Assembly (NCBI GenBank): GCA_942490825.1
Contig: CALNYG010000013.1
Span: 1 to 53,310 of the forward strand
Reading direction: 5' to 3'
From: Candidatus Moraniibacteriota bacterium
GTDB lineage: Bacteria; Patescibacteriota; Minisyncoccia; Moranbacterales; GCA-2747515
Length of the DNA: 53,310 nt
Below the pieces are notes generated by a model. That model did not search any database. It was not told the origin of the DNA and saw nothing but the letters and a program-made list of their open reading frames with translations. The position numbers and the translations under genes were made by a program. How positions within the stretch are numbered: position 1 is the first letter of the stretch; each line of letters starts with the position of its first letter. Of the stretch, positions 1-51,188 are shown piece after piece.

Positions 1-2
1 AG

Positions 3-107
3 GATCAAACGGAGATGGTGTCGTCTTCGACTGTACCAGTGGCGTATGAGGTTTATAAATGGTATTTTGAGGAAGAAGAAAAAGAAAGGAAAGAGGAGGT
101 CTTATAA
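3..107 (+). CDS. 3' end of a CDS truncated by the window edge; possibly a penicillin-binding protein transpeptidase C-terminus
   Basis: Frame 3 reads DQTEMVSSSTVPVAYEVYKWYFEEEEKERKEEVL* (TAA 105-107). SSTVPVAxEVxKWYF resembles PBP2/FtsI-type C-terminal helices; fragment too short to be sure. Confidence 0.35.
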   Translation, partial: DQTEMVSSSTVPVAYEVYKWYFEEEEKERKEEVL

Positions 108-169
108 TCAATAAGATAATTTTTAATCTTTTATTAAGATTAGGGATATATATTAAAATCCTAATAAAT

Positions 170-844
170 TTGAATATATTAAAATTTATTTTAAAAAGTA
201 TTAATTTGTTTAATGATTTTAAATTGATGACAGTAAAGAAATTAAATAAAAACAATAACATAGGCAAAGGTTGGCAATACACTGTTTATGATTTGGGAAA
301 TGATCGAGTTTATAAAAGCTTTAATTCTTACCAGGACTCTTTTAAGATTATACTTAGAGATTGGTGGTTTGCTTTTTGGAAAGTGTTAATTCTCGTAAAA
401 GAAATGAAAAATAATGCTACTAAATCATTGAATTTTTTAGATCAATTTTTAATTCAACATCCAATGCAGGCAGTATTGTTTGGAAATTTAAAAAGAATTG
501 GTGAGCTTGATATCGAACAAGACAAGGTTATTCCTTTAAAAATTTATTTGAAAAATTGTTCAGCGGAGGAAAGTAAAATTATTATTGATAAATTTGTAGA
601 ATTATGCAGATTATTTTTTAAATATGGTTTTATGGATAAATCTTTGAAAGTGGGAGAAAACTTTGGAATTGATAAAAATGGTCAAATAATTCTGATGGAT
701 ATTGGAGAGATATGGTTCGATGAAAAAAGTGTAGAACGACAAATTAAAAATAGGGTTTGGACAAGTTGGTGGTGGATGCGGTGTATTCCACGTAGTTTAC
801 GAAAATATTATGTTCAGGAGATGGATAAGGTGTTTTTAAAATGA
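170..844 (+). CDS. Hypothetical protein with atypical protein-kinase-like motifs (alternative start ATG 227)
   Basis: Gly-rich loop IGKGWQYTVY followed by VYK; catalytic-loop-like MDKSLKVGEN; DFG-like ILMDIGE. Confidence 0.5.
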   Translation: MNILKFILKSINLFNDFKLMTVKKLNKNNNIGKGWQYTVYDLGNDRVYKSFNSYQDSFKIILRDWWFAFWKVLILVKEMKNNATKSLNFLDQFLIQHPMQAVLFGNLKRIGELDIEQDKVIPLKIYLKNCSAEESKIIIDKFVELCRLFFKYGFMDKSLKVGENFGIDKNGQIILMDIGEIWFDEKSVERQIKNRVWTSWWWMRCIPRSLRKYYVQEMDKVFLK

Positions 845-865
845 GTAGTTAATAAGAAATCAATC

Positions 866-2011
866 ATGAATCAAAACCACACACAACTAAAACAAATAAC
901 CCAAAAAAGTTTACGAGCCTGTTACCTAGACGGAAAAGTAGTCGCATCACTAACACACTTTTCAGATTTTTGGGCACGAGACACATTTTGGGCATTACCC
1001 GGAATGCTAGAAATCGGAGATGTACAAGAAGCAAAAAACTGTTTCGAATACTTTTTATCTTATCAACGCGAAGACGGAAAAATTCCCCGAAAAATATCTT
1101 TAGACTTAAATGCAATAAAATATTTAACAGGAAAAAAGTTTAAACGAAAAAATCCACATCCAACTTATTACGGTTTAGTGCCACCTTTTTACGCTAAAGA
1201 TAGCGAATTACTTTTGATTAATGCGTTTGCTCATTATATTAAAAAAACTCAGGATATTGAATTTCTTGAGAAAAATTTTTCAAAATTACAAAAAGCAATT
1301 GATTGGCATATTAAAACCGAAAAAGGTGGATTGATTAGCGAATACTTTTTAGGCAATTGGATGGATACAGTTTTTAAATTTGGTCCAGTTTTATATACAA
1401 ATGTTTTATATTTTCAAGCGTTGAAACAAATGTCTATTTTATCGAGAACTCTTGGAAATAAGAAAATGGAAATTAAATATTTAGAATTAGCGGTTAAAAC
1501 TCAAGATGTTATTCAAGATAGATTTTGGAATGGAGAATTTTTTGTTGATGAAACCAGAAAAGATAATAATGAGAAAATTTTTGATTTAGCGGGAAATGTA
1601 TTGGCAGTTATTTTTAATCTTGGTGAAGAAGACCAGAAAAAATCAGTTGTGAAAAAATTAAAAAACTATGTTCAAAAATACGGCACTTTTGTTCCAGCTG
1701 TGCCGACAGGTCATCCGTGGTATAAAATTAATCCCGTGGTTAGATTATTGGGAATTGCGGATTATCACACATCAACTAGTTGGTCATGGATTGATGCTTT
1801 TTTAGTTGAGGCTTTTTATGAAAATGGAGAAACTGAATTAGCGGAAAAAATGCTACAGGAATTTGAAAATGTAATTGTTAAAAATCAGGAAATGGGTGAG
1901 ACTTATTTTGTGGGCGGCGGGGTTTATAAAAAACGTTTTTGGGAGAGTGCGAGTCCGTTTGCGTGGAGTAGTGGGGTTTTGTTGAGTGTTTTGAGTGTAA
2001 TAGAAAAGTAG
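866..2011 (+). CDS. (alpha/alpha)6-barrel glycoside hydrolase, amylo-alpha-1,6-glucosidase / glycogen-debranching C-terminal-like
   Basis: FWARDTFWALPG (cf. WGRDT), NWMD, NVLY..AL, YH...W.W and FAWSSG motifs in the expected order. Confidence 0.75.
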   Translation: MNQNHTQLKQITQKSLRACYLDGKVVASLTHFSDFWARDTFWALPGMLEIGDVQEAKNCFEYFLSYQREDGKIPRKISLDLNAIKYLTGKKFKRKNPHPTYYGLVPPFYAKDSELLLINAFAHYIKKTQDIEFLEKNFSKLQKAIDWHIKTEKGGLISEYFLGNWMDTVFKFGPVLYTNVLYFQALKQMSILSRTLGNKKMEIKYLELAVKTQDVIQDRFWNGEFFVDETRKDNNEKIFDLAGNVLAVIFNLGEEDQKKSVVKKLKNYVQKYGTFVPAVPTGHPWYKINPVVRLLGIADYHTSTSWSWIDAFLVEAFYENGETELAEKMLQEFENVIVKNQEMGETYFVGGGVYKKRFWESASPFAWSSGVLLSVLSVIEK

Positions 2012-2054
2012 ACAGTTAGAATAATAGATATTTAAATAATGAAATAATACATTT

Positions 2055-2298
2055 TGTCATTCTGAGCGTAATAAATTTATAAAAAATTTACTTTGCAGGA
2101 ACCAGTTTTACAACTGGTTTCGAAACGTTTTTGTTACGATTCAATTTAAATTTTAAATTTTTTTGTTAAACTTTTTCAGAAACGTATGGAACAGATTGTA
2201 AAATCTATTCCTGCTAAGGCTTTTCTGATACTGAAAGGATATTTAAGGTCTTATCGAGATTGCCACGTCACTCCCTACGGTCATTCCTCGCAATGATG
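2055..2298. repeat. Long imperfect fold-back element with TGTCATT/AATGA ends
   Basis: Left arm gcaggaaccagttttacaactggtttcgaaacgttt versus reverse complement of right arm gcaggaatagattttacaatctgttccatacgttt; starts tgtcattctgagcg, ends cctcgcaatgat. Confidence 0.6.
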
Positions 2299-2331
2299 TG
2301 ATAGATTTGAAAATTTTATTGCAGTTGAAAA

Positions 2332-2348
2332 GCCTGTGCGGCGAGCAC
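2332..2348 (+). repeat. Dispersed 17-nt GC-rich motif, copy 1 (GCCTGTGCGGCGAGCAC)
   Basis: Same motif at 7293, 32963, 40347, 45052, 48044. Confidence 0.9.
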
Positions 2349-2368
2349 AATTTAATTTTTGAAGTCCC

Positions 2369-2396
2369 TTGCAAGAAAAAATAATTCGTGTATACT
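2369..2396 (+). promoter_or_regulatory. Putative sigma70 promoter of rplI
   Basis: TTGCAA-N16-TATACT, 43 nt before the ATG. Confidence 0.55.
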
Positions 2397-2439
2397 ATAA
2401 ATTAGATTATGTAAGATTTGTATTTATATTAGAGACTAT

Positions 2440-2886
2440 ATGAAAGTTATATTAAACGAAGACAATAAGAATTTGGGTAAGAAAAAAGGAGACATTGTTA
2501 ATGTTTCTGATGGTTTTGCTTTTAATAGTTTGATTCCAAGTGGTATGGCTAGTCCTGCGACTAAGGAGACAATGGCTGAATTGGAGCGACAAAAAGCTCA
2601 GGATGAGGCTGTTCAGGCTGATAAAGTAAAAGCTGCCCAAGAAAATGCTAAGAAGCTAGATAAGAAGAAAGTTAATATTATTTCTAAAGCTGAGGGTAAT
2701 AAATTATTTGGTTCTGTGGATAAAAAGCAGATTGCTGAAGCAATTAAGGAACAACACAAAATTGATGTTGATGAGAAGATGATTGTGTTGGCTGAACCGA
2801 TCAAGGAGTTGACTACTTTAGAGATTGTGATTGATTATGGTAACAAGGCTAAAGCTGGTGTTATTCTAACGATTTCTTCAAAATAG
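2440..2886 (+). CDS. rplI: 50S ribosomal protein L9
   Basis: MKVIL..D..NLGKKKGDIVNVSDGFAFN.LIP.G.A N-domain; KLFGSV motif; 148 aa. Confidence 0.95.
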   Translation: MKVILNEDNKNLGKKKGDIVNVSDGFAFNSLIPSGMASPATKETMAELERQKAQDEAVQADKVKAAQENAKKLDKKKVNIISKAEGNKLFGSVDKKQIAEAIKEQHKIDVDEKMIVLAEPIKELTTLEIVIDYGNKAKAGVILTISSK

Positions 2887-2909
2887 ATTTTTAGTTAATT
2901 TAGACTTTA

Positions 2910-2939
2910 AAAGAGGCGCTTTTACTCAAGCGTCTCTTT
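2910..2939 (+). terminator. Intrinsic terminator after rplI
   Basis: aaagaggcgctt / aagcgtctcttt stem. Confidence 0.7.
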
Positions 2940-2988
2940 GACTTTGCAAAAAGGGATTTTGAGTGATTAATTTATTTAAAATAATATA

Positions 2989-3366
2989 ATGAAAGAAACT
3001 TTTGAAAATTTTTATAAGATGTTAAAATTAGATAGGGAAAAATCTTCTTTTTCGAAAAGTCATAGCTTAGAAGATAGATTTACTGAATTAAAATTAGAGA
3101 TTGAGGAAATTGGAAAAGCTCTTGAAAATAATGATACTGAAAATTTAAAAGAAGAATTAGGCGATGGTTTGTGGGATTTGCTTTTTATGATTGTGATTGC
3201 TGAGGAGAAAGGCTTATTTTCGGGAAAAGAGGTTTTTGATGGTGCGATTAAAAAATTAAAGAGAAGAAAGTCTTGGATTTTTGAGGAGGGTGAGATGAAG
3301 ACGAGAGAGGAGGAAATTGAGCTTTGGAATGAAAATAAGAGGAAAGAAAAATTGGGTTTGATTTAG
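2989..3366 (+). CDS. MazG-like nucleotide pyrophosphohydrolase
   Basis: E..EI......NDTENLKEELGD.LW.LLF and KLKRRK.WIF match the MazG all-alpha NTP-PPase pattern. Confidence 0.8.
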   Translation: MKETFENFYKMLKLDREKSSFSKSHSLEDRFTELKLEIEEIGKALENNDTENLKEELGDGLWDLLFMIVIAEEKGLFSGKEVFDGAIKKLKRRKSWIFEEGEMKTREEEIELWNENKRKEKLGLI

Positions 3367-3405
3367 TTTTTAAATAATTTTAAATAATTAATTAATTAAT
3401 TTAAT

Positions 3406-3897
3406 ATGGAAAATATTCAAAATAAAGAAGAATATCAAAGTATAAAACCAAAAGTAAATGGGTTTATATTAGTTTTACAAAGTATTTTTGCGGGTCTATT
3501 TTTCTGGGCTCCATTTGCAGGTTTCGGAGGTTTTTGGTTATATGTTATTTTTGGTCTAGAAAGTTTAATAATTTTACCTATAGTTTTTGTGTTCTTTTTT
3601 CTTATATCTTTGTTATTAACAAAATCAAGTTATGAAGAAATGGAATATAAATTTTATAAAGATAGAGTTGAATATGTTGATGGCTTTTTTGTCAAAAATA
3701 AAAAAGCAATTAAATATGAGAATATAGTTAATATTAGCCAAACAAGAGGGATTTTAATTGATAGAATATTTAATTTAGGTAAAATAAATATTTATACTGC
3801 TGGAGCAAGTTTTAGTACAGGACTGCGTATGGTTTTTATAGAAAATCCAGATTATGTTTACGATTGGATTATAAAAATAACATCTAAAGAAAAATAA
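3406..3897 (+). CDS. Membrane protein with bacterial PH (bPH_2 / YdbS-like) domain
   Basis: Two N-terminal TM segments; GFFVK....I.YENI.NI...RG....RIFNLG.I.I.TAG pattern. Confidence 0.75.
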   Translation: MENIQNKEEYQSIKPKVNGFILVLQSIFAGLFFWAPFAGFGGFWLYVIFGLESLIILPIVFVFFFLISLLLTKSSYEEMEYKFYKDRVEYVDGFFVKNKKAIKYENIVNISQTRGILIDRIFNLGKINIYTAGASFSTGLRMVFIENPDYVYDWIIKITSKEK

Positions 3898-3915
3898 TGT
3901 AATTAACAAAAAAAT

Positions 3916-5559
3916 ATGGCGAAAAAAAATAAGAAATTTATATTCGTAGTTGGAGGAGTAATGAGCGGAGTAGGAAAAGGAATAACCGCATCATCAATCG
4001 GAAGACTAGTCCAATCTCGAGGATTCAACGTAACAGCAATTAAAGTCGATCCTTACATTAACGTAGACGCAGGAACGATGAACCCAACAGAGCACGGAGA
4101 AGTTTTCGTTCTTGAAGACGGTGACGAAACCGATCAAGACATGGGGAATTACGAAAGATTCTTAGGAACAACTTTAACTCGAACAAATTACATGACAACC
4201 GGACGAGTTTACCAGTCCGTAATTGAGCGAGAAAGAAACGGTGAATACAAAGGAAAATGCGTAGAAGTAGTGCCACACATTCCATTAGAAATTATCGATC
4301 GAATTGAGACAGCAGCTGAAAAAGCCGATGCAGATGTTTCAGTAATTGAAATCGGAGGAACAATTGGCGAATATCAAAACATTCTTTTTCTTGAGGCAGC
4401 ACGGATGATGAAAGCAAAATATCCAGATAGCGTAGCGTTTGTTTTAGTAAGTTATGTACCAATACCAAATAAAGTTGGTGAGATGAAAACTAAGCCGACA
4501 CAATACGCTTCTCGAACTTTGAACGGAGCAGGAATTCAGGCAGATATTATTGTGGCTCGTTCTGATATTGAATTAGATGAAAAGCGAAAAGAAAAAATCT
4601 CACTTTCATGTAGTGTTAAAAAAGAAAATGTAATTAGTGCACCAGACGTGGAAAGTATTTATCATGTTCCTGTTAATTTTGAAAAAGATGGCTTGAGTGA
4701 TATTTTACTTAAAGAATTAAACTTGAAATCGAAGACTAAAGATTTAACTGAGTGGACTAAGTTTGCCAATAAAATTACCCGAGCAAAGAAAACTTTAAAA
4801 ATTGGAATTGTTGGAAAATATTTTTCAACCGGAGACTTTGTGCTTTCTGATGCGTACATTAGTGTAATTGAGGCAGTTAAACATGCTTGTTATTATAATG
4901 GTTGTAAACCTGAAATTGATTGGTTAGACAGTAGTGAATATGAGAAAGATCCGAAAAAACTTGAAGATTTGAAAAATTATGCAGGAATTGTAGTTCCTGG
5001 TGGATTTGGTTCTCGTGGGATTGAAGGAAAAATTAAAGTGGCAGAATTTTGTCGAGAAAATAAAGTTCCTTACTTTGGACTTTGTTACGGTATGCAAATT
5101 GCAGTGGTTGAATATGCTCGAAATGTTTTGAAACTTGAAGATGCTCACACGGTGGAGATGAAGGCAACTGCGAAGAATAAAATCATTGATATTATGCCAG
5201 AGCAAAAAAAGAAATTGGAGAATAAGGATTTTGGTGGCTCGATGCGATTAGGTAGTTATCCTGCGATCATTGCGAAGAAGACGATTGCGTTTAAGGCATA
5301 TAAGGACACTGAAGTTTCTGAGCGTCATCGTCATCGGTATGAGGTTAATCCTGAGTTTATTGAGAGACTGGAAGAAGCTGGATTGGTTTTTTCTGGGAAG
5401 TCGCCGAATGGTGAATTGATGGAGATCATGGAATTGCCAGTGAGTGTTCATCCGTTTTATTTAGCAACGCAGTTTCATCCGGAGTTTCAGTCTGCTCCGT
5501 TAGATCCGCATCCTTTGTTTATGGGTTTTGTGAAGGTGGCGAAAAAATTGAGTGAGTAA
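3916..5559 (+). CDS. pyrG: CTP synthase
   Basis: GGVMSGVGKG, DPYINVDAGTMNPTEHGEVFV, GLCYGMQ, ERHRHRYE, QFHPEF. Confidence 0.99.
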   Translation: MAKKNKKFIFVVGGVMSGVGKGITASSIGRLVQSRGFNVTAIKVDPYINVDAGTMNPTEHGEVFVLEDGDETDQDMGNYERFLGTTLTRTNYMTTGRVYQSVIERERNGEYKGKCVEVVPHIPLEIIDRIETAAEKADADVSVIEIGGTIGEYQNILFLEAARMMKAKYPDSVAFVLVSYVPIPNKVGEMKTKPTQYASRTLNGAGIQADIIVARSDIELDEKRKEKISLSCSVKKENVISAPDVESIYHVPVNFEKDGLSDILLKELNLKSKTKDLTEWTKFANKITRAKKTLKIGIVGKYFSTGDFVLSDAYISVIEAVKHACYYNGCKPEIDWLDSSEYEKDPKKLEDLKNYAGIVVPGGFGSRGIEGKIKVAEFCRENKVPYFGLCYGMQIAVVEYARNVLKLEDAHTVEMKATAKNKIIDIMPEQKKKLENKDFGGSMRLGSYPAIIAKKTIAFKAYKDTEVSERHRHRYEVNPEFIERLEEAGLVFSGKSPNGELMEIMELPVSVHPFYLATQFHPEFQSAPLDPHPLFMGFVKVAKKLSE

Positions 5560-5566
5560 TTTTTTG

Positions 5567-5595
5567 AGAGGCGTGCTTTGCGTACGCCTCTTTTT
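5567..5595 (+). terminator. Intrinsic terminator after pyrG
   Basis: agaggcgt / acgcctct stem followed by a T run. Confidence 0.75.
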
Positions 5596-5619
5596 AATTT
5601 GGATATAAAATTATAGAAG

Positions 5620-6480
5620 ATGAGAAAAAAAATATCAAAAGAGCAACTGGAAAAGCTTTATCAAAAAGAAGGAGGGGATTATGTAGTTACTCCGTATGAA
5701 GATGGATCTAAAGTTGCCTTAAGTATATTTAGGAATTATAAAGATGAAGTCAATAGAGATTTTCTAATTCTTATTGTAGTTGCTATTTTAAATGATGGAA
5801 CTGTGCTTGGTAAGGTAAATAAAGTGGTAAAACCACAAGGTAAAAATTCAAACCTTTTTTATTTAGCAGAAGATAAAAAATTTTTAAATTTTAATTTGGA
5901 AAAAAATGATGATATAAAGTTTGGATTTAAAAAAATGAAAATTACGTACAAGAATAAATATCTTAATATAAATGAATTCGTTGATAATTTAGAGCAAAAT
6001 CATTTTAAAGGGGGTAAAAATATTTATGAAAAATTTAAAGTTATATTATTTTTATTATTTTTAAAATTTATTTACAAGTTGGCAGATATAAAATATAATC
6101 CTAAGTATACTTTTATACCAAGAGAAAATCCATTGGAAATAAAATTAAAAAAAGCTTTTAAACCGCCAACATTTAAAACTTATTTTAGAGATTTTAAAAT
6201 ATATAGAAATTTATTTATTACCTCAATTTTTTCTTTGATATTGTTAATTATAATTTCAACAAGATTTAATTTTATTGGAAATTTTACAATTAATATATTT
6301 TTTAGTAACTCATCACCCAAATTAGATAATCCTCTTTCATTACTTTATTTTATATTTATGTTATTAATGTTAGAGAAAATAAGTATTTGGTTAGAAATAA
6401 ATTTTAAAGAAAAAGGTATTTTTTATACTTTGTCGAATAAACATAGGAAAATGCAAACTCAATTTAAATTAAAAATGTAG
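5620..6480 (+). CDS. Hypothetical protein with two C-terminal hydrophobic segments
   Basis: 286-aa very AT-rich ORF, no recognised family motif. Confidence 0.7.
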   Translation: MRKKISKEQLEKLYQKEGGDYVVTPYEDGSKVALSIFRNYKDEVNRDFLILIVVAILNDGTVLGKVNKVVKPQGKNSNLFYLAEDKKFLNFNLEKNDDIKFGFKKMKITYKNKYLNINEFVDNLEQNHFKGGKNIYEKFKVILFLLFLKFIYKLADIKYNPKYTFIPRENPLEIKLKKAFKPPTFKTYFRDFKIYRNLFITSIFSLILLIIISTRFNFIGNFTINIFFSNSSPKLDNPLSLLYFIFMLLMLEKISIWLEINFKEKGIFYTLSNKHRKMQTQFKLKM

Positions 6481-6493
6481 AAACAAAATTATC

Positions 6494-6532
6494 ACACCGT
6501 AGAAACGTTGCATTGCAACGTTTCTACGGTGT
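6494..6532. repeat. REP-type perfect palindrome (GTAG family) upstream of the RAYT
   Basis: acaccgtagaaacgttgca-t-tgcaacgtttctacggtgt, 19-bp perfect arms. Confidence 0.9.
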
Positions 6533-6546
6533 AAGGAATTAAAACA

Positions 6547-7140
6547 ATGCAAATAAATCCAGAAAAATTCAAAAATAAATATCGCACAAAATCAACCCGT
6601 TTACAAAACTGGAATTACGCATCAGCAGGTTGGTATTACATAACAATTTGCACAAAAAACAAAGAAAATTATTTCGGAAAAATAAAAGACCAAAAATTAA
6701 TTTTAAATGAAATAGGAAAAATCGCAGAAAAATTTTGGTCAGAAATTCCAAAACATTTTCAAAACGTACGATTAGACGAATTTATAATTATGCCAAATCA
6801 TATTCATGGAATAATTGTGATTGATGATGTGGAGGATGATGTTGTTGTAGAGACGTTGCAGTGCAACGTCTCTACGATGAAGGAAGGAAAAAATAAATTT
6901 TATTCAAAAATCTCACCAAAACCACGATCATTATCAACAATCATTCGATCATTCAAATCAATCTGCACAAAAACAATAAACAATAATTTTAAAATAAAAA
7001 ATAACAATCAAAAAATAAATTTTGCATGGCAACCAAAATTTTATGATCACATAATTCGCAACGAAGAATCTTTAAACAAAATTCGAGAATATATTTTTCA
7101 AAATCCTTTTAACTGGGAAAAAGATGAAAATTTTAAGTGA
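6547..7140 (+). mobile_element. REP-associated tyrosine transposase (RAYT / TnpAREP, Y1 HUH family)
   Basis: YYITICT, HUH motif MPNHIHGII, SLSTIIRSFKS, WQPKFYDHIIR and YIFQNP; flanked by GTAG palindromes. Confidence 0.9.
6847..6875. repeat. REP palindrome inside the RAYT coding sequence
   Basis: gtagagacgttgca-g-tgcaacgtctctac, translated in frame as VETLQCNVST. Confidence 0.9.
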
Positions 7141-7190
7141 TTTTTAGATTTATGATTTTTTGCAGAAAATTCTTTGTCTTCTTATTTTTA

Positions 7191-7215
7191 AAACGTTGCA
7201 GTGCAACGTTTCTAC
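7191..7215. repeat. REP palindrome downstream of the RAYT, left GTAG degenerate
   Basis: aaacgttgca-g-tgcaacgtttctac. Confidence 0.85.
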
Positions 7216-7245
7216 AAAAAAGAAAATATATTTTCCGGAATGACA
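7209..7245 (+). repeat. Repeat tttctac(A)n gaaaatatattttccggaatgaca, copy 1
   Basis: Identical to 47953-47986 apart from A-run length (6 vs 3). Confidence 0.85.
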
Positions 7246-7292
7246 AATCTAGGAATTTCGTGTTTCTGGAATTTTTACAAATATGTATCATA

Positions 7293-7309
7293 GCCCGTGC
7301 GGCGAGCAC
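7293..7309 (+). repeat. Dispersed 17-nt motif, copy 2
   Basis: GCCCGTGCGGCGAGCAC. Confidence 0.9.
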
Positions 7310-7341
7310 AATTATTTTTATTCTTAATTATTTTTAAAAAC

Positions 7342-7386
7342 TTATCGAGATTGCCACGTCGTCGCTCCGCTCCTCCTCGCAATGAC
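7342..7386 (+). repeat. Palindromic-element right half ttatcgagattgccacgtc...cctcgcaatgac
   Basis: Shares its first 19 nt and its cctcgcaatga end with 2251-2297. Confidence 0.8.
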
Positions 7387-7508
7387 GCGAAAGGTAAAGT
7401 GAAATATTTTCACTTGTCAATGTGTATTATTAATATATACGTAAAAACAAAAAACCAAATTTCCAATTTTTACCAAAAAACTTCTTAAATCATCAACATT
7501 CTCAAAAT

Positions 7509-9305
7509 ATGTCATCAGATGTCGAATTAGTAAAGTCCAGAATTAACATTGTGGATATAATAGGAGAGTACGTAAAATTGATAAAAGCTGGAGGCAGTCT
7601 AAAAGCTAATTGCCCATTTCATCAGGAAAAAACACCATCTTTTGTAGTCAATGAAGACAAACAGATTTATCACTGTTTCGGTTGCAATCAAGGTGGAGAC
7701 GTTTTAACTTTTTTGATGGAGATGGAGAGCATTGGATTTCGTGAAGCATTGCAAATGTTGGCAGAAAGATCAGGGATTGAATTGCAAAATAATTTTACAC
7801 AAAATAAAGAAGAAAAGAAAAAAAATGATTCATTTTATTCTATCTTAGATTTATCAGCTCGATTTTACGCAAAGCAAATTTGGTCAGATGAAAAAAATAA
7901 AATCTTAGAATATTTGCGAGACAGGGGTATGGGTGACGAAATTATCAAAAAATTCAAAATTGGATTTGCACCAGATGGTTGGAATAATTTAGAGAATTTT
8001 TTAGTTAAACAGGATTTTACGAAAGAGGATATTTTTGAATCAGGGCTTTTAGTGAAAAAAAAGTCAGATGGATATTACGATCGTTTTCGCAACAGAATTA
8101 TTTTTCCAATTGCAGATTCTCTAGGGCGAGTGGTTGGATTTACAGCTCGAGTTTTACCAGGTGATGATGAATCTCAGGCAAAATATATCAACACTCCAGA
8201 ATCACCACTTTATCATAAGAGTAGTATTCTTTACGGAATCGATTTAGCAAAGCAGATAATTAAGCAGAAAGATCAGGTGATAATTATGGAGGGGAATATG
8301 GATGTGATAGCAGCTTGGCAGGCGGGCGTGGAAAATGTAGTGGCAGTTTCAGGGACAGCTTTAACAGATGATCATATTAAAATTCTAAAACGGTATACGA
8401 AAAATTTTGTTTTATTTTTTGATTCAGACGATGCTGGGATGAAAGCGGCAGAACGAAGTGCAAAAACTTGTTTGTCAGCAGATGTTAATTTATCAATGGT
8501 TGTTTTAAAAGAAGGAAAAGATGCTGCGGATATTGTCAAAGATAATCCTGAAAAGTTGCAAAAAATTATTGATGAGGTAAAAAATGTTATTGATTCATTT
8601 ATTGATTTAGCAAAAGAGAAATATGACTTGTCAGATCCTCGCGGTAAAAGATTGGCAGTTGATGAAGTTATATCATTCGTTGCTCACATTGATAATTCGA
8701 TAGAACGAGAAGCTTGGGTTTTAAAATGTGCTGATATTTTTAATGTTGATGAGAAAATGATTTATGATGTAGTGACAAAACATCGCGCAGAGGAAAATAA
8801 AACTTTCAAAGGTAATAAAAATGTTCAGGAAAATGAAAAGGTTGAAGTAAGTGATGCAGTTAAGAATTCAAGATTATATCGATTATATAAATCAATCGCT
8901 TTAATAATGCTATCTTATCCACATGTTTGGAAACATATTTATGAAAACAAGGAAAAATTTTCAATCTTAATGGATCATAATTTTTTAGCAATTTTATTTA
9001 AAGAAGGTTTAGATTGTAATTTCGAAGCAGGCAATTTCGTCAGTAAAGATAATAGTCGAGAAAATATTTATAAAGAAGCTTTGAATTTTAAACAAAGATA
9101 TGAAATTGAGCATCAAGATGAGAGTAGTCCGATTGCAGACGTAGAAGATTATTTTAAGAATATTATTCAGGAGAAAAATAAACAAGAAATTACTCAATTA
9201 ACTCAACAATTGAAACAGATGCAAAAGAAGGGTAATTATGAAAAGCAAAAGGAAATTTTAGAAAAAATAACTCAAGCTTCTAAAAATTTAATTAATTATT
9301 CATAA
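7509..9305 (+). CDS. dnaG: DNA primase
   Basis: CPFHQEKTPSF and CFGC zinc finger, YYDRFRNRIIFPI, KYINTPE, EGNMDV and DSDDAG TOPRIM motifs. Confidence 0.98.
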   Translation: MSSDVELVKSRINIVDIIGEYVKLIKAGGSLKANCPFHQEKTPSFVVNEDKQIYHCFGCNQGGDVLTFLMEMESIGFREALQMLAERSGIELQNNFTQNKEEKKKNDSFYSILDLSARFYAKQIWSDEKNKILEYLRDRGMGDEIIKKFKIGFAPDGWNNLENFLVKQDFTKEDIFESGLLVKKKSDGYYDRFRNRIIFPIADSLGRVVGFTARVLPGDDESQAKYINTPESPLYHKSSILYGIDLAKQIIKQKDQVIIMEGNMDVIAAWQAGVENVVAVSGTALTDDHIKILKRYTKNFVLFFDSDDAGMKAAERSAKTCLSADVNLSMVVLKEGKDAADIVKDNPEKLQKIIDEVKNVIDSFIDLAKEKYDLSDPRGKRLAVDEVISFVAHIDNSIEREAWVLKCADIFNVDEKMIYDVVTKHRAEENKTFKGNKNVQENEKVEVSDAVKNSRLYRLYKSIALIMLSYPHVWKHIYENKEKFSILMDHNFLAILFKEGLDCNFEAGNFVSKDNSRENIYKEALNFKQRYEIEHQDESSPIADVEDYFKNIIQEKNKQEITQLTQQLKQMQKKGNYEKQKEILEKITQASKNLINYS

Positions 9306-10706: not shown

Positions 10707-10778
10707 TCCGAGATAGCTCAGCGGTAGAGCAGTTGGCTGTTAACCAATTGGTCGTCGGTTCGAATCCGACTCTCGGAG
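10707..10778 (+). tRNA. tRNA-Asn (GTT), CCA not encoded
   Basis: Acceptor TCCGAGA/TCTCGGA, D-arm GCTCAGCGGTAGAGC, anticodon arm GTTGG-CTGTTAA-CCAAT, T-loop GGTTCGAATCC. Confidence 0.97.
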
Positions 10779-10787
10779 CAAAGTAAT

Positions 10788-10816: not shown

Positions 10817-11269
10817 GTTTTTGTAAAGAAATTATTAAATTCTATTCAAAAATTAATCAAAGAAAACTAAATTTTAATTTTTCCAAAAAACATTTTACGA
10901 TAAATATGATGATGTAATCTTTTTCTCAGTCTATCATCTTTATTCCATCGAACGGTACTCTTAATTCAGGTGAAAATAGATATATTTCTACTGATATGAG
11001 CCTTGCTAATTAGGGTGAGAAAGTTGTCTACATTAAAAATGGTAAGCTATGGCGTGTTAGGATGAAATGATTTTTAAGGTATAAATTTAAAAAAAAGCAT
11101 TGGTCTCAAATGAGGTCAACGTTTGATTTTTTAAATTATTTTTCGCAAAGTTTTTACAATTAATTTAGCTTACACGGCTCTTTAACATCTTTGGGCAAAG
11201 CTAAGTATTGAAATTTGTTAAATTCTATGCTTAAATATTAAGTTATTTTAATAATTTAATATTTTAAAA

Positions 11270-11473
11270 ATGCAAAAAAAAGAGATTAAAAAAATATTCA
11301 ATTTAGAAGGATATATTTTAGATAAATTTGAAGAAAAAAATGATAAAATAATTTTACATTGTCATTTACAAAAGAATTCATTTAAATTAAAAAATGAGGT
11401 AAGTAAAAAAATTAATCAAAAAAGAAATAGAATAATTGCTCATTCTATGTTTGAAAATAAAAAGTTTTTATAG
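11270..11473 (+). pseudogene. ISL3 transposase N-terminal part, truncated by a 1-bp deletion
   Basis: A5 here versus A6 in copy 2 at gaaaat-aaaaa(a)-gttttt; copy 2 reads through to 106 aa. Confidence 0.75.
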
Positions 11474-11642
11474 CTATTACTCAAAGAAGATTTTATTTTT
11501 CTAAACATAAAAAGAAACTTTGGGAATCTTTACCTCAAGTTAAAAAAGGGCAACAAATGAGCACAGCTTTTAAAAAAACTCTGTCATAGAATTAAGAGAA
11601 ACCACATATAGCGGACTAGCTAGATCTAGACAGATAAGCATT

Positions 11643-38576: not shown

Positions 38577-38835
38577 ATTCTTCTTGATTTTTTATAGCTC
38601 GCATGATAAACTTATTTATCGGGTAAGAATTTGCTCGTAATATTTTTTTAGACATTTGATTGAATATATTAAAAAGAGCTTAAATTATTTTAAAAAAGTA
38701 GTTTTAGTTCTTTTTGAAATAGGCAGTTTATATTTTTCTTTAAAATTAAAGAAATAATATTTTTTAAAAAGAATGTGCTAATTGTAAAAAATTACAAAAA
38801 AGGAGAAGCTATGTCTGATGTAAAAAAGTGGCTCT

Positions 38836-39657
38836 TTAACATCTTTGGGCAACTAAATTTAAGAAAATTGTCATCGGAAGAACACAAAATAATAATCTTT
38901 TACAAAAACGTTCAACATTTCTAATCCCAAAATGATTCCTTTTAATTCTTTCAAAATGATTATGAATTCCTTCAGTATAAGCATTAGTTGTTTTAGATAA
39001 ATAATAATTTAATATTTCATCAAACCATCTTGTTAATGTATTAGCCAAATCTTTCATATATTTTGATTCTGAAGTTTTACAAAGACTGATGACATATTTT
39101 AATTGTTTTTGAGCTTCTTTTCTGTTATTTTTCCAATATACTTTTCTGAGTTGATGAATTATTTTCCAACTTTGTTTTAACTTAGGAACTTTAACAAAAA
39201 CTTTTTCTAATTTATTAAATTCTTCAATTGTTAATTTGTGTGTAGGTATCATCAGTAATTTATTTATTTTATAAGATTCATTGTTGATGTCTTGAAAAAC
39301 TTTCTTTTGTTCTTTTAATAAAAAGACAGCCCACTGAATTATATGAAAATGATCAATCACAATAACCGCATTAGGAAAACATTCTTTAATAATAGCTGGA
39401 AAAAAAGAGTCCATATCAATACATACTTCTTTAACTGCTAATCTAAATTTTAAATCAATTTTTAATAATTCTTTCAGCAATTCTTTTTGTGATAAATTTG
39501 GTAGAACACCTATCACCTCATTATCAATTAAATTAGTAATGTTAAAAACTTGTTTTCTTTTGCTAACTCCTTTGCCATCCATTCCAATTCTTTGAATAGA
39601 TTTATCCCAAATTAATGAAGTATTTACCATTTCATCAATCATTCTCAGAGCCGACAT
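38836..39657 (-). CDS. ISL3 transposase catalytic part
   Basis: Near-identical to 11643-12464; I/V and L/F differences near the C-terminus. Confidence 0.9.
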   Translation of the reverse strand: MSALRMIDEMVNTSLIWDKSIQRIGMDGKGVSKRKQVFNITNLIDNEVIGVLPNLSQKELLKELLKIDLKFRLAVKEVCIDMDSFFPAIIKECFPNAVIVIDHFHIIQWAVFLLKEQKKVFQDINNESYKINKLLMIPTHKLTIEEFNKLEKVFVKVPKLKQSWKIIHQLRKVYWKNNRKEAQKQLKYVISLCKTSESKYMKDLANTLTRWFDEILNYYLSKTTNAYTEGIHNHFERIKRNHFGIRNVERFCKRLLFCVLPMTIFLNLVAQRC

Positions 39658-39710
39658 AATGCTTATCTGTCTAGATCTAGCTAGTCCGCTATATGTGGTT
39701 TCTCTTAATT

Positions 39711-40031
39711 CTATGACAGAGTTTTTTTAAAAGCTGTGCTCATTTGTTGCCCTTTTTTAACTTGAGGTAAAGATTCCCAAAGTTTCTTTTTATGTTTAGA
39801 AAAATAAAATCTTCTTTGAGTAATAGCTATAAAAACTTTTTTATTTTCAAACATAGAATGAGCAATTATTCTATTTCTTTTTTGATTAATTTTTTTACTT
39901 ACCTCATTTTTTAATTTAAATGAATTCTTTTGTAAATGACAATGTAAAATTATTTTATCATTTTTTTCTTCAAATTTATCTAAAATATATCCTTCTAAAT
40001 TGAATATTTTTTTAATCTCTTTTTTTTGCAT
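39711..40031 (-). CDS. ISL3 transposase N-terminal part
   Basis: 106 aa, ends shortly after an A7 run from which the -1 frame leads into the catalytic ORF. Confidence 0.8.
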   Translation of the reverse strand: MQKKEIKKIFNLEGYILDKFEEKNDKIILHCHLQKNSFKLKNEVSKKINQKRNRIIAHSMFENKKVFIAITQRRFYFSKHKKKLWESLPQVKKGQQMSTAFKKTLS

Positions 40032-40346
40032 TTTTAAAATATTAAATTATTAAAATAACTTAATATTTAAGCATAGAATTTAACAAATTTCAATACTTAG
40101 CTTTGCCCAAAGATGTTAAAGAGCCAAAAAAGTGTGCTGAATGTGGGTCTGATGTTCAGAATGATGAGGCACGGGAGGTTGAAGGAAGAATTTTGTGTAT
40201 AAAATGCTGGTGCAAACGTACTGGCTTAAAAGAAAAAGACCTTGAATTGAATGATTAATGAATTTGTTGCGAGGGGGTATTCCATAGGTATTACCTCCCT
40301 AATTTTTTTTAATTCATACTTTTTAAATTTTCTCTAATCTCAAAAA

Positions 40347-40363
40347 GCCCGTGCGGCGAGCAC
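40347..40363 (+). repeat. Dispersed 17-nt motif, copy 4
   Basis: GCCCGTGCGGCGAGCAC. Confidence 0.9.
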
Positions 40364-40401
40364 TTCTTTAACCAAATTAAAAATAGAAAACTTCAAACCT
40401 C

Positions 40402-42280: not shown

Positions 42281-42316
42281 AAAGTCCAACCTTCGGATGT
42301 CCGAAGGTTGGACTTT
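42281..42316. repeat. Perfect palindrome after lepA (terminator and/or second REP-like family)
   Basis: aaagtccaaccttcgga-tg-tccgaaggttggacttt, 17-bp arms. Confidence 0.8.
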
Positions 42317-42335
42317 TGTATAGTTTGATTTTTTC

Positions 42336-42415
42336 ATAAAAACAAAAAAGTTATCGGTTAAGATAACTTTTTTATTTGCTGTAAAGATTCCAAATTTTTG
42401 GTTTGAAATGTTTAG
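42336..42415 (+). repeat. ~80-bp hairpin-containing repeat, copy 1
   Basis: Matches 44773-44853 closely, apart from the loop. Confidence 0.85.
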
Positions 42416-44688: not shown

Positions 44689-44772
44689 TTTTTAACCGTG
44701 TTTGTCGCATGGGAGATAATACATGATAATGCTGTTAGAGATGAGTTTATCTTTTTGTAAATAAATTTTTAT

Positions 44773-44853
44773 ATAAAAACAAAAAAGTTATCTTAATCGA
44801 TAACTTTTTTGTTTGCTATAAAGATTCTAAAATTTTTGGTTTGAAATGCTTAG
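44773..44853 (+). repeat. ~80-bp hairpin-containing repeat, copy 2
   Basis: Matches 42336-42415. Confidence 0.85.
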
Positions 44854-45051
44854 CTATGGTGTCGGAATATATGTGATGTTTTACTCTGTGCTAGACGACT
44901 ACTTTTTAGATGCTCTTGAAAATTGCTGATTAAATTCTATGGGTGGTAGATAGTTTAAGCTTTGATGATATTTTTTAGAAAATTCTTCACTCCACTACGT
45001 TAAGAATGACGCTATATTGAATGATGGGGAATTTGAAAATTATGTATCAAA

Positions 45052-45089
45052 GCCCGTGCGGCGAGCCTGCCTGTTCGGCAGACAGGCAC
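45052..45089 (+). repeat. Dispersed 17-nt motif, copy 5, interrupted by a 21-bp hairpin insert
   Basis: GCCCGTGCGGCGAGC-ctgcctgttcggcagacaggc-AC. Confidence 0.85.
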
Positions 45090-47986: not shown

Positions 47987-48043
47987 TGTTTGAAAGTTTA
48001 TAATAAATTTTTTAAAATTTCTGATAATAACAAATAGTGAAAA

Positions 48044-48060
48044 GCCCGTGCGGCGAGCAC
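48044..48060 (+). repeat. Dispersed 17-nt motif, copy 6
   Basis: GCCCGTGCGGCGAGCAC. Confidence 0.9.
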
Positions 48061-48116
48061 TATTTAATTTATCGAATAATTTTTATTTAAAATTTGTGAC
48101 AGAGAAATACTAGAAT

Positions 48117-49164: not shown

Positions 49165-49953
49165 ATGGAAGAAAATAATACGATAGTTTTACATTTGAGA
49201 AGTTTAATATACAGTCTAATTTTTTTAGTTGGAGTTGAAATTATAGCGGCGACCTCACTTTCTTTTTTTGATGCTGATCAAACTAGAAGTATAACCGTGG
49301 CAATCGTTTCTTTTATTTTATTTGTATTGTCGATGTATGCAGGTTGGCAAATTGGAAAAAAGAGTATCTTTTCTTTTGTGGCTTGGGGATTGGCGACTTT
49401 CTCTATAATTTTACTTTTACGTTTTATTGATAATCAAATTCAAAAATATATTTTTGCAGCTTTGATCAGCTTTGCATTTTACGCAACACTTTTAAGTGCG
49501 GAAAGATTGCGGCGAAATGTGAGTGATTTAACTGCGAGGAGTATTTTTTCTTCTTCATTTATTGCGATGCTATTTCTTTTTTATGCGGGAATGTATGGTT
49601 TTTATATTAATTTTGATGTTCCACTTTGGTTGTTGATGTTGGTTCACTTGGTGTTTAGTGCGTTTGCGACATTTAGCTCATTGTTAGTCCATTCAAGTGA
49701 TAAAGTTCGAGTATCTTTATATAGTGTGATTATTTCTTTTGCAACGATGCAATTTGTGTGGATGGCAAATTTTTGGCCGTTTGGTTATTTGACGATGGCG
49801 ACGGCTAGCTTGATGTTTTATTATATTTTATGGGACTTGGTGCACATGCTGTTTCTTCAGGAGCTTTCTAAGAAACGGGTGCTCATGAATATTGTGTTGA
49901 CTATTATTTTGCTTTTAGTTGTTTTGGTTACTTCTCGGTGGGTTTTGGTTTAG
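49165..49953 (+). CDS. Hypothetical polytopic membrane protein
   Basis: About 8 hydrophobic segments; no family motif recognised. Confidence 0.8.
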   Translation: MEENNTIVLHLRSLIYSLIFLVGVEIIAATSLSFFDADQTRSITVAIVSFILFVLSMYAGWQIGKKSIFSFVAWGLATFSIILLLRFIDNQIQKYIFAALISFAFYATLLSAERLRRNVSDLTARSIFSSSFIAMLFLFYAGMYGFYINFDVPLWLLMLVHLVFSAFATFSSLLVHSSDKVRVSLYSVIISFATMQFVWMANFWPFGYLTMATASLMFYYILWDLVHMLFLQELSKKRVLMNIVLTIILLLVVLVTSRWVLV

Positions 49954-49993
49954 AAAAGTTATAAAGTCAAAAGAGTTTTTTGAGAATTTTAAA

Positions 49994-50023
49994 AAGGGCG
50001 AACCGCGTTTGCGATTTACCCTT
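49994..50023. terminator. Hairpin between convergent genes
   Basis: aaggg...cgc-gttt-gcg...ccctt. Confidence 0.45.
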
Positions 50024-50100
50024 CTTGCTTTGACAGACTAATTATTAACAACTGAATACAATACCTTCTTTCCAAATAGACAAAGGAGGAGATGTATTTT

Positions 50101-50388
50101 CTAGCATTCTAAATCGCATCCTGTATATAACTTATCAATAATTGTTGATGTTAGCTTTGATTTTTTAAGTATCTCCTTAGTATTGGGTTGATTACTAATT
50201 AAGAAGCAAAAAAGAAGATTTGTGATATTCATGGAAACATCGGTTTGTTGCCATTGAGAATCTTTTTCTGTGAATCCGTAGGCATACACACTGCGTTCAT
50301 CTTCAAATATGATAATCGTGTGCATGTTTTGGTGGGTTAAAAAATCAAGACCTCCCCAATTGAATTCAAAGTTTTCAGACACGGACAT
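50101..50388 (-). CDS. Small hypothetical protein
   Basis: 95 aa with a strong GGAGGGTG RBS before the ATG. Confidence 0.6.
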   Translation of the reverse strand: MSVSENFEFNWGGLDFLTHQNMHTIIIFEDERSVYAYGFTEKDSQWQQTDVSMNITNLLFCFLISNQPNTKEILKKSKLTSTIIDKLYTGCDLEC

Positions 50389-50456
50389 AACTCACCCTCC
50401 TATATATTTTTTTATTGTATTATAACATCAACCCATTATTATATACTATTATTATT

Positions 50457-51188
50457 ATGTCAAATAGCATACAAAAAATATTAAAAGTAAAAATAAATAA
50501 TTTATCACGAAAAGAAATTCTAAAAAAAATAGAATCGTTTTTAGATAGCGAAAAATTTCACCAGATTACGACTACTAATGCAGAATTTATTTTAAAAGCA
50601 CAGAAGGATGGGGAATTTCGAAAGATTATAAATGAATCGGATTTGAGTGTGGCAGATACGATTTCAATTTGGTATGCGTTTATTCGACATTTTAATTTTT
50701 TGAAGTGTCGAATTGCAGGAATTGATTTGATGCAGGAGATTTTAAAAATAGCAGAGAAGAAGAACATTTTAATTTTTTTGGTTGCGAGAAAAGACGGATT
50801 GAGTAGTTGGCGAGAAACACGAGATGCAATTTTAAAACAGTTTCCTGATTTAGGTATTGAAGGTACTGATGTTAATGAAGATTTGTCTGAACAATGGGTC
50901 ATGACCCATTGTTCAAAAAATAAAAAGTGGATTGTTTTTTGTAATTTTGGAGCACCGGAACAGGATAAGTTTATTCACTCTTTGCGACAGTTTAAGGGTA
51001 GAATTTGTTTAGGCGTGGGGGTAGGTGGTAGCTTTGATTTTTTAACAGGTAAAGTCCAACGTGCTCCTAAGTGGATGAGAGTTTTAGGGCTTGAATGGAT
51101 TTATCGTTTTTTTCAGCAACCGAATCGTTGGCAACGGATTTTTAATGCAGTGATTATTTTTCCAATTCGGGTTATTTTAAATAAATAA
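50457..51188 (+). CDS. WecB/TagA/CpsF family glycosyltransferase (GT26); start at ATG 50457 preferred
   Basis: ITTTNAEF, .DLSVAD, GAPEQDKFI, GVGGSFDF, KVQRAPKWM..LGLEW.YR..QQP.R. Confidence 0.92.
   Translation: MSNSIQKILKVKINNLSRKEILKKIESFLDSEKFHQITTTNAEFILKAQKDGEFRKIINESDLSVADTISIWYAFIRHFNFLKCRIAGIDLMQEILKIAEKKNILIFLVARKDGLSSWRETRDAILKQFPDLGIEGTDVNEDLSEQWVMTHCSKNKKWIVFCNFGAPEQDKFIHSLRQFKGRICLGVGVGGSFDFLTGKVQRAPKWMRVLGLEWIYRFFQQPNRWQRIFNAVIIFPIRVILNK

Follow-up and report, generated by a model that had tools for sequence, protein, structure and literature searches.

Mirror-image skew of third codon positions around variable single-gene slots in a narrow clade of uncultured Moranbacteria

The window investigated here, a stretch of 53,310 nucleotides (positions 1 to 53,310, forward strand) of contig CALNYG010000013.1 from a Candidatus Moraniibacteriota bacterium (assembly GCA_942490825.1), contains several slots, i.e. 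sites at which a single accessory gene lies between conserved core genes, and the silent sites of these neighbors are skewed in mirror image. The amidohydrolase of the window exhibits 83% identity to a protein of the metagenome-assembled genome GCA_030630955.1 (Candidatus Moranbacteria/Moraniibacteriota, Patescibacteria), and its pyrG gene is 95% identical to the equivalent on a contig from the same series of samples (ZHAN22-2); an exact search with the gap protein of the window gave no match. The base composition is AT-rich (31% G+C), the top strand carries about 96% of the genes, and G is far more frequent than C on this strand. According to Pfam, the gene order starts with the C-terminal fragment of a PBP, a kinase-like gene, a glycoside hydrolase (GH), L9, MazG, bPH_2, pyrG, an ORFan and RAYT. 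It continues with dnaG, rpoD, tRNA-Asn, ISL3, a surface protein of 3291 amino acids (aa), UPF0047, MltG/YceG, gap and DKNYY, followed by an N-acyl-D-amino-acid deacylase-like amidohydrolase, murD, S16, L10, L7/L12, a split SDR, GT4 and a Wzy-like gene. The last part comprises a phosphoesterase, a second ISL3, lepA, DivIC-like, PpiC/SurA-like, ClpB, another phosphoesterase, DUF5656, WecG/GT26 and MFS. Strand skews of bacterial DNA are usually taken as chromosome-scale marks of replication and, more weakly, of transcription. We scored the skew as GT3, the fraction of third codon positions that are G or T, in blocks of 20 codons; the window mean is 0.58, and values near this mean are referred to as baseline or flat. 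The slots and their flanks are located as follows.

1-107 (+): left flank of slot 1, C-terminal fragment of a PBP-like core gene that aligns to the PBP C-termini of the related loci L086 and L089
170-844 (+): occupant of slot 1, a kinase-like accessory gene with a weak AceK_kinase match and a flat GT3 of 0.60
866-1153 (+): A/C block at the start of the GH gene (866-2011), GT3 0.23, 95 codons from codon 2
2989-3366 (+): left flank of slot 2, MazG with a moderately G/T-rich end (29/40 of the last 40 codons)
3406-3897 (+): occupant of slot 2, a membrane protein gene of baseline composition (Pfam bPH_2)
3916-4377 (+): A/C block at the pyrG start, GT3 0.29 over 160 codons
5200-5559 (+): left flank of slot 3, G/T-rich pyrG end with blocks of 14-19/20 G/T
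5566-5592: intrinsic terminator after pyrG
5620-6480 (+): occupant of slot 3, a 286-aa ORFan of baseline composition without a Pfam match
6494-7140 (+): palindrome resembling a repetitive extragenic palindrome (REP; 6494-6537) and RAYT/Y1 transposase gene (6547-7140; Y1_Tnp match), the latter A/C-rich throughout (GT3 0.35)
26541-26807 (+): left flank of slot 4, G/T block at the gap end, GT3 0.95 over 75 codons
26882-27643 (+): occupant of slot 4, a lipoprotein gene of baseline composition (Pfam DKNYY)
27814-28080 (+): A/C block at the start of the N-acyl-D-amino-acid deacylase-like amidohydrolase, GT3 0.14 over 85 codons, with C at 0.39 and G at 0.06 of the third positions
33514-33801 (+): left flank of candidate slot 5, G/T block at the SDR end (adh_short), GT3 0.87, no C-ending codon
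33802-34445 (no strand): candidate slot 5, non-coding DNA and a 96-aa ORF on the minus strand (34015-34305) without a Pfam match; no relative covers this junction and could document its variability
34446-34850 (+): A/C block at the start of a GT4 glycosyltransferase (Glycos_transf_1), GT3 0.38 over 135 codons
41782-42126 (+): G/T block in lepA, codons 452-567, GT3 0.83
834-nt spacer after the lepA block, then 43078: DivIC/FtsB-like gene, whose first 80 codons are mildly A/C-rich (7, 11, 7 and 9 G/T per 20 codons)
49516-50534 (+): candidate mirrored pair, the G/T-rich end of gene 49165-49953 (GT3 0.80) and then a short A/C block (GT3 0.16)
50101-50388 (-): small ORF between 49953 and the WecG/GT26 gene starting at 50415

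The mirror-image third-position skew is genuine and far from random. In gap, 62 of the last 65 codons terminate in G or T (P = 7e-12 against the window mean), which is exactly the count of the initial annotation that called attention to the pattern, and the final 20-codon blocks contain 18, 20, 19 and 18 such codons. The amidohydrolase on the other side of the DKNYY gene starts with only 4, 3, 3, 4 and 4, corresponding to 82 A/C endings over its first 100 codons; its A/C-richness had been recognized before, but the reported 35/40 is slightly too high (33/40 for the first 40 codons, 34/40 for codons 2-41). Within pyrG the values climb steadily from 7, 1, 7, 8, 6 and 4 at the start to 15, 15 and 19 at the end, a monotonic gradient (r = 0.37, p = 1e-18) that agrees with the earlier counts of 33/40 A/C at the start and 34/40 G/T at the end (32-33/40 and 34/40 on recount). 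GH and amidohydrolase exhibit sharp A/C blocks of about 95 and 85 codons, respectively (4, 4, 5, 5 and 7 G/T per 20 codons at the GH start), and the A/C-rich starts of GH and GT4, previously given as 32/39 and 26/39, were recovered as 32/40 and 26/40. The 3' half of the SDR gene shows 15-20 G/T per block and, as stated before, not a single C-ending codon among 111. The ends of dnaG, rplJ, rplL and rpoD were correctly described as baseline (21-23/40). The fragment at 1-107 had been called G/T-rich, but with 22/34 it is close to baseline; its orthologues end at 16-19/20 G/T.

The polarity is the same at every strong slot, namely G/T-rich on the left and A/C-rich on the right of the top strand, as the initial annotation had expected for 3' tails at a break within the slot. 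On the left side, A at third positions drops to 5% and G rises to 41%, and on the right side T drops to 12% and C rises to 39%; left flanks contain 28-41% G and 0-1% C, right flanks 20-39% C and 1-6% G. Silent sites reach extremes of 95% G/T and 86% A/C, which decay over a few hundred bases, and the total reach of the skew is about 0.3-1.5 kb. A check at fourfold-degenerate sites, which had been proposed for the whole genome and was done here in the window, confirmed the shift (T19 G16 A2 C0 at the gap end; A25 C9 T4 G1 at the amidohydrolase start). The variance among 20-codon blocks is 9.1 compared with a binomial expectation of 4.9, and change-point segmentation of third-position G/T yielded 24 segments versus 1.1 in binomial simulations. 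With 24 segments and at least seven sharp G/T-to-A/C switches in 53 kb, a replication origin or terminus is ruled out as their cause; the cumulative GC skew rises monotonically across the window. Two A/C-rich segments are of low complexity and not part of the phenomenon, i.e. the stretch 21751-22500, which represents the (AACAACTCC)n Thr-Thr-Pro repeat of the surface protein, and the Lys/Glu tail of S16.

Non-coding DNA is affected by the skew as well. The composition of the 20 nucleotides before the start codons correlates with that of the first 60 codons (rho = 0.46, p = 1e-4), which indicates that the skew is regional rather than codon-specific, and the 25 nucleotides after the stop codons co-vary weakly with the last 60 codons (rho = 0.26). 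In the SDR gene (33065-33801), the reading frame shifts at an A7 run (33453-33459) such that two overlapping ORFs result, which could reflect a pseudogene, a homopolymer sequencing error or slippage; the G/T bias of the 3' half is still codon-periodic.

The skew is confined to a narrow clade of uncultured Moranbacteria. The same blocks are present in orthologues from independent assemblies of about six related species, whose loci are 80-96% protein-identical to the window. These loci, labelled L081-L092, L173 and L174, were retrieved from NCBI, ENA and Logan assemblies and belong to the species groups L081-L087, L088/L091, L089/L090, L085/L173/L174 and L092. The A/C block at the GH start is kept in L086 and L089, that of the amidohydrolase in L081 and L085, and the G/T block at the gap end in L090, L091 and L092. 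This recurrence rules out an assembly artefact, including the assembler bias considered in the initial annotation; the independent assemblies of these other species, in which the pattern might have been lost, retain it. Outside the clade, the per-gene difference between the last and the first 60 codons ranges from -0.08 to +0.07 in 80 gap loci across bacteria, none of which has the terminal G/T block, and it averages -0.017 with a maximum of 0.05 in 63 pyrG loci of the candidate phyla radiation (CPR); the corresponding values are 0.17 in the window and 0.07-0.22 in the relatives. The first 100, middle and last 80 codons of pyrG have a GT3 of 0.29-0.41, 0.57-0.70 and 0.81-0.89 in the clade, compared with 0.54, 0.51 and 0.48 in 54 outgroup genes. 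A general bacterial or CPR property is ruled out by the absence of the pattern from the 143 control loci, and a gene-intrinsic property of pyrG or gap by the outgroup pyrG genes and the 80 gap orthologues.

The comparison with these relatives documents that the slots are real presence/absence and replacement breakpoints, in agreement with what had been surmised for the sites between mirrored flanks. Upstream of pyrG we found bPH_2 in the window and L174, DKNYY in L086 and L088, LysE in L089 and no gene at all in L173, where MazG and pyrG are only 39 nt apart and the flip is still present. The position upstream of GH is occupied by the kinase-like gene in the window, by Fic in L086 and by an abhydrolase in L089, and the position downstream of gap by DKNYY in the window, a DKNYY protein of 38% identity in L090, an unrelated 93-aa ORF in L091 and a 62-aa ORF in L092. 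Relatives harbor non-orthologous genes of 313, 198 or 134 aa after pyrG (slot 3), and L081 alone contains a gene (459 aa) at the murD-S16 junction. The relatives are homologous up to 15-25 nt past the upstream stop codon and again from 17-30 nt before the downstream start codon, and the occupants are flat and of baseline composition in the window and in the relatives. Identical core flanks with non-homologous content in related genomes are the hallmark of core-flanked hot spots of gene flux. Additional mirrored pairs were detected in the relatives around Fic (PBP and GH), NUDIX (YqeY and YbeY) and unk384 (EF-G-like and MreC), and on the minus strand of L173 around unk180 (DUF1361 end and UDG start) and then unk144 (Lactamase_B start). 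All five amidohydrolase-bearing contigs of relatives (L081-L085) end 90-490 nt upstream of this gene, and the gap-bearing contigs of close relatives are only 2-6 kb long; these contig ends fit strain-variable or repeated sequence in this slot that breaks assemblies. The pyrG alignment of the window, L086, L089 and L088 has a mosaic structure, with L086 being closer to L088 (0.07) than to the window (0.15) at codons 151-200 and the window and L086 being closest elsewhere, which is indicative of recombination between these species.

A rule-based test of all junctions whose two core genes both occur in another species revealed that the flip, obtained by subtracting the GT3 of the first 60 codons on the right from that of the last 60 codons on the left, has a mean of 0.27 at 21 variable and 0.02 at 13 conserved junctions (Mann-Whitney p = 0.0018), with orthologous junctions recurring such that only about 8 versus 6 cases are independent. 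The proposed tie between the flip and variable junctions is thus upheld. This result bears on the reading that the slots are not special, i.e. that long-resident genes acquire a gradient from A/C at the 5' end to G/T at the 3' end by transcription or translation, which newcomers still lack. A positive slope in 28 of 35 genes, a metagene profile rising from 0.48 to 0.66 and the persistence of the flip at the empty slot of L173 speak for it. A general gradient is nevertheless very unlikely, given the flat profiles of the conserved genes dnaG, L9, MazG, mltG, FtsA, FtsZ, L10 and L7/L12, the near absence of a flip at conserved core-core junctions and the reset in the middle of an operon between MazG and pyrG. 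A/C endings are moreover not optimal codons, since only 3-6% of the codons in ribosomal-protein genes end in C; codon optimality is ruled out by this proportion in L9, S16, L10 and L7/L12, whose GT3 is 0.42-0.72, and by the skew of non-coding leaders.

The initial annotation had also considered a gradient along transcription units. The reset inside the L9-MazG-slot-pyrG operon, which is ended by a strong terminator after pyrG, and its presence even at the empty slot of L173 contradict this alternative. A scan of the window detected terminators after pyrG, mltG and L7/L12 only, whereas promoter-like matches occurred at the level expected by chance in AT-rich DNA.

The substitution spectrum of the blocks was inferred from synonymous third-position changes polarized on terminal branches, i.e. 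changes unique to one of three or four species. The following rates, based on modest counts, are per site and branch.

A>G: ordinary regions 0.097; G/T blocks 0.130 (1.3x, not significant); A/C blocks 0.037 (0.38x, P = 6e-4)
T>C: ordinary regions 0.060; G/T blocks 0.016 (0.27x, P = 1e-4); A/C blocks 0.113 (1.9x, P = 0.035)
G>A: ordinary regions 0.154; G/T blocks 0.062 (0.40x, P = 6e-4); A/C blocks, too few sites
C>T: ordinary regions 0.186; G/T blocks, no C sites; A/C blocks 0.143 (unchanged)
T>G: about 3x baseline in G/T blocks
A>C: 7-11x baseline in A/C blocks (P < 1e-8)

Changes away from the bias are 3-5 times rarer, but changes toward it are only 1.3-1.9 times more common, and the same spectrum was obtained when the regions were pre-set from the window and changes were counted only in other lineages. 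GC3 amounts to 28% in both block types versus 13% elsewhere, and synonymous divergence is not raised near the slots; the strain-level polymorphisms among L081-L084 comprise three differences in all. There are indications that the spectrum fits a fixation-type bias (biased conversion or selection) with a scaled strength of about 1.5-2.5, and it also fits a single strand-specific process that is repartitioned between the strands. In either model, transversions toward G would seem to be required in addition on the strand that turns G/T-rich.

These rates are difficult to reconcile with the mechanism originally proposed, namely repeated double-strand breaks in the slot with deamination on exposed 3' single-stranded tails as a source of additional C>T and A>G mutations. 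In its favor, it agrees with the polarity and the length scale, mutations at human meiotic hotspots are asymmetric in a similar mirrored manner, and the amino acids of the gap C-terminus have been pushed to G/T-rich codons, with the highest value of 80 orthologues. A simple deamination excess is disfavored because it predicts a large rise of changes toward the bias and unchanged reverse rates, and the data show the opposite. A>G is hardly elevated in G/T blocks, T>C and G>A are 3-4 times rarer there (P = 1e-4 and 6e-4), and in A/C blocks A>G drops to 0.3-0.4 times background with T>C rising only 1.9-fold. The biggest changes are transversions (T>G and A>C, 3- to 11-fold up), which deamination does not produce, and the unchanged synonymous divergence near the slots argues in the same direction. 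Hence, of the two marks of single-stranded DNA (ssDNA) mutagenesis at break flanks, the mirrored polarity is present, but the raised toward-bias rate with unchanged reverse rates is not, and break-induced deamination appears improbable.

The idea that palindromes serve as cut sites fared no better, as the hairpins are REP-like elements or ordinary terminators present in many intergenic regions. The REP-like palindrome GTAGAAACGTTGCAnTGCAACGTTTCTAC flanks and lies inside the RAYT/Y1 gene (6494-6537, 6842-6885 and 7182-7225) and recurs at 32926-32969. It is kept together with the RAYT gene start in L086 and L089, and the compensatory changes of the stem in L089 (GTAGAAACAAGGCAATGCCTTGTTTCTAC) indicate that the hairpin itself is conserved. 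The GC-rich motif CCCGTGCGGCGAGCAC, which sometimes adjoins the palindrome, is located in six intergenic regions (2326-2358, 7287-7319, 32957-32989, 40341-40373, 45027-45066 and 48038-48070). A repeat of about 90 nt with a terminator-like hairpin (AAACAAAAAAGTTATC...GATAACTTTTTT) follows lepA (42315-42404) and the PpiC/SurA-like gene (44752-44841).

Stalling or uncoupling of replication forks at the slots would offer a different explanation of the same spectrum. Templates would remain single-stranded for longer, namely that of the lagging strand behind the stall on the left (top strand) and that of the leading strand ahead of the stall on the right (bottom strand), so that the replication skew would be amplified on the left and inverted on the right; rearrangements at the site would also be promoted by stalled forks. 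The flank spectra indeed resemble the background strand asymmetry in amplified (left) and mirrored (right) form. The sum of A>G and T>C is about 0.15 in all three region classes, albeit based on small counts, and only the strand split changes, from 62:38 in ordinary regions to 89:11 in G/T and 25:75 in A/C blocks. Polarity and scale fit equally. Fork stalling is nonetheless as improbable as the deamination model, considering that no barrier element is common to the slots, that their terminator or REP hairpins are present elsewhere too and that the doubling of GC3 is left unexplained.

The suppression of changes away from the bias is also what selection predicts. Under selection on the mRNA of the core genes that flank the slots, the skew would represent an adaptation to the variable neighbor rather than a by-product of recombination. 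An A/C-rich 5' region could keep the start open, load Rho or insulate the gene from the upstream cassette, and the G/U-rich 3' end could have a related role. The A/C blocks begin at most about five codons from the start (codons 1-2 in GH and GT4, codon 5 in the amidohydrolase, within the 5-codon resolution in pyrG), the skew includes the leader and hardly reaches the amino acids, and the minus-strand genes of L173 show the pattern in their own sense. An open mRNA may matter in these genomes, as Shine-Dalgarno-like sequences are nearly absent; the 25 nt upstream of the 33 plus-strand genes contain one in two cases, which does not discriminate between genes with and without a block. The leaders are A/T-rich, and several share AACAAAAAA(T)ATG.

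Selection of this kind remains an unlikely explanation, because blocks of 85-160 codons far exceed any known effect of the initiation region and about 140 other loci, CPR relatives poor in Shine-Dalgarno sequences among them, do not show the pattern. Most genes lack the skew, among them ribosomal-protein genes and most of those that follow long intergenic regions, which start at baseline without an A/C block. A/C-rich next to G/U-rich RNA moreover pairs more rather than less (composition by itself gives -105 kcal/mol for the gap end with the deacylase start), the 7-11-fold rise of A>C is too large for weak selection, and the selection model leaves the mirrored G/T end of the upstream gene unexplained. 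That the two arms form a specific stem around the cassette, as RNA or ssDNA, was rejected, since pairing is no better than in synonymous-codon permutations for two of three pairs (z = 0.56, -1.08 and -2.86).

A short dip of GT3 over the first 20 codons is visible in many genes of the window. The known codon bias for an open mRNA at the 5' end resembles the right flanks of the slots in its A-rich and G-poor gene start, but it spans about 10-20 codons and is widespread, whereas the slot blocks are much longer, C-enriched, clade-specific and paired with an upstream G/T block. Their length and their absence from the 143 control loci rule out translation-start codon bias as the explanation.

The explanation that we favor is a slot-centered, strand-polar bias of recombination or repair, to which we assign a rough probability of 0.45. 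The slots would be fixed hot spots at which a single accessory gene is inserted, lost or replaced via homologous recombination, with the adjacent conserved genes serving as recombination arms. A strand-polar step would begin at the slot and run a few hundred bases outward; resection of ends, exchange of strands and heteroduplex repair, each taking place where the slot DNA is broken or gapped, are the likeliest candidates. The polar step would favor the survival of one base over another, such that the strand with its 3' end toward the slot gains G and T. With this strand enriched on each side, G/T would accumulate on the top strand to the left of the slot and A/C to its right. We infer both recombination as the cause and the step that is polar. 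The polarity fits the expectation for a chromosome that opens in the slot and whose 3'-ending strands are preserved or favored, and the spectrum suggests a biased resolution, either of the fixation type or as a partition bias between strands that includes a G-ward component, and speaks less for a large deamination excess. The doubling of GC3 in both flanks, as expected at recombination hot spots, the mosaic distances in pyrG and an AddA-like helicase-nuclease encoded in L081, which documents resection machinery in the lineage, are in favor of the recombination or repair bias.

Several observations weigh against this explanation. Non-coding DNA beside the slots deviates in the right direction, but much more weakly than third positions (0.65 and 0.45 versus 0.95 and 0.14), and the amino-acid composition is shifted only at the C-terminus of gap and not in pyrG or the amidohydrolase. 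No nuclease, integrase or att-like site was found at the slots by Pfam and junction comparison, the latter including a search of 20 left and right junctions for a conserved att-like motif, and there are no convincing Chi-like oriented words common to the left arms and the reverse-complemented right arms. The flanking genes are co-oriented in all cases, with the consequence that gene-polar causes at the RNA level coincide with slot-polar causes at the DNA level, and the number of independent junctions behind the flip test is small. The empty slot of L173 keeps the flip, so cause and effect could be reversed; by itself it shows only that the footprint outlives the occupant. On the L173 contig, five minus-strand genes (1-3400) diverge from MazG-pyrG (3400-7751), and the G/C skew inverts at this point (G 0.11 and C 0.15 on the left, G 0.19 and C 0.10 on the right), which could mark a replication origin, an inversion breakpoint or a skew that tracks gene orientation.

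The comparison with known systems places the slot-centered recombination or repair bias in a wider context. Human meiotic break hotspots exhibit a mirrored asymmetry of the same polarity, with changes of C and A on the forward strand to the left and their complements to the right (PMC7615360). These hotspots and the ssDNA hypermutation at breaks in yeast share with the slots an asymmetry that is mirrored about a fixed point, and the hotspot scale of about 1-2 kb, which is set by 5'-3' resection, can be likened to that of the slot flanks. The meiotic signal is an excess of de novo mutations in pedigrees, whereas the slots show a standing composition of up to 95% G/T in a bacterium. The slots, unlike the meiotic hotspots, have no sign of raised mutation input, their reverse changes are suppressed, and the break itself is a proposal only.

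The replication-associated GC or keto skew involves the same base classes (G/T versus A/C), and the flank spectra correspond to its background asymmetry in amplified or mirrored form. It switches once per chromosome arm, in contrast to the many terminus-like switches at variable single-gene junctions within 53 kb. GC-biased gene conversion is comparable in raising GC3, which is doubled here, and in its substitutions that resemble a fixation bias. It is strand-symmetric, whereas only G is raised on one side of the slots and only C on the other, and T (left) and A (right) are increased as well. Replacement flexible genomic islands are hot spots of horizontal gene transfer flanked by core genes (PMC4033161; PMC11879095). 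They have conserved core flanks and differing content in common with the slots, consistent with exchange through flanking homology. The slots differ from them by accommodating single genes inside operons at a distance of 5-30 nt from the next start codon and by their compositional footprint. An integron-type cassette array was ruled out, since no integrase was found in the window by Pfam, no motif is conserved at the 20 left and right junctions and the slots are dispersed and hold single genes. Full-text literature searches, which retrieved replication and transcription skews, GC-biased gene conversion, core-flanked replacement islands and meiotic-hotspot asymmetry, found no prior description of a local mirrored skew at bacterial gene slots.

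The window harbors further features apart from the slots. Two copies of an ISL3-family element are located in inverted orientation at 11176-12474 (+) and 38826-40125 (-), and their identity of 99-100% is indicative of a recent transposition; one of them is positioned about 400 nt downstream of the tRNA-Asn(GTT) gene (10707-10779). The 3291-aa surface-type protein (12676-22551) contains DUF11, SBBP, SdrD_B and SpaA-like domains, and its gene comprises six 195-nt tandem repeats (18181-19455) and the perfect Thr-Thr-Pro linker (AACAACTCC)n at about 21768-21920. The 538-nt 'intergenic' region 23492-24029 contains an open frame of 93 codons without a start codon, which resembles a GNAT acetyltransferase by eye and may represent a gene remnant.

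A more specific and more tentative version of the recombination or repair bias is that the slots are fixed sites of recombination initiation and that the strand polarity of the intermediate has been written permanently into the silent sites of their neighbors, possibly by a strand-asymmetric form of biased gene conversion. If this were true, the skew would be the first footprint that a strand asymmetry initiated by recombination is seen to have left in bacterial evolution, and the hot spots of gene exchange together with the direction and reach of strand processing would be readable from a single genome. Analyses of codon usage, horizontal gene transfer and selection would misread such blocks as foreign DNA or as the outcome of selection. 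If recombination causes the skew, biased repair could strongly shape local codon usage, the polarity and tract length of a DNA transaction would become measurable, and hot spots of gene flux in uncultured bacteria could be located from sequence alone.

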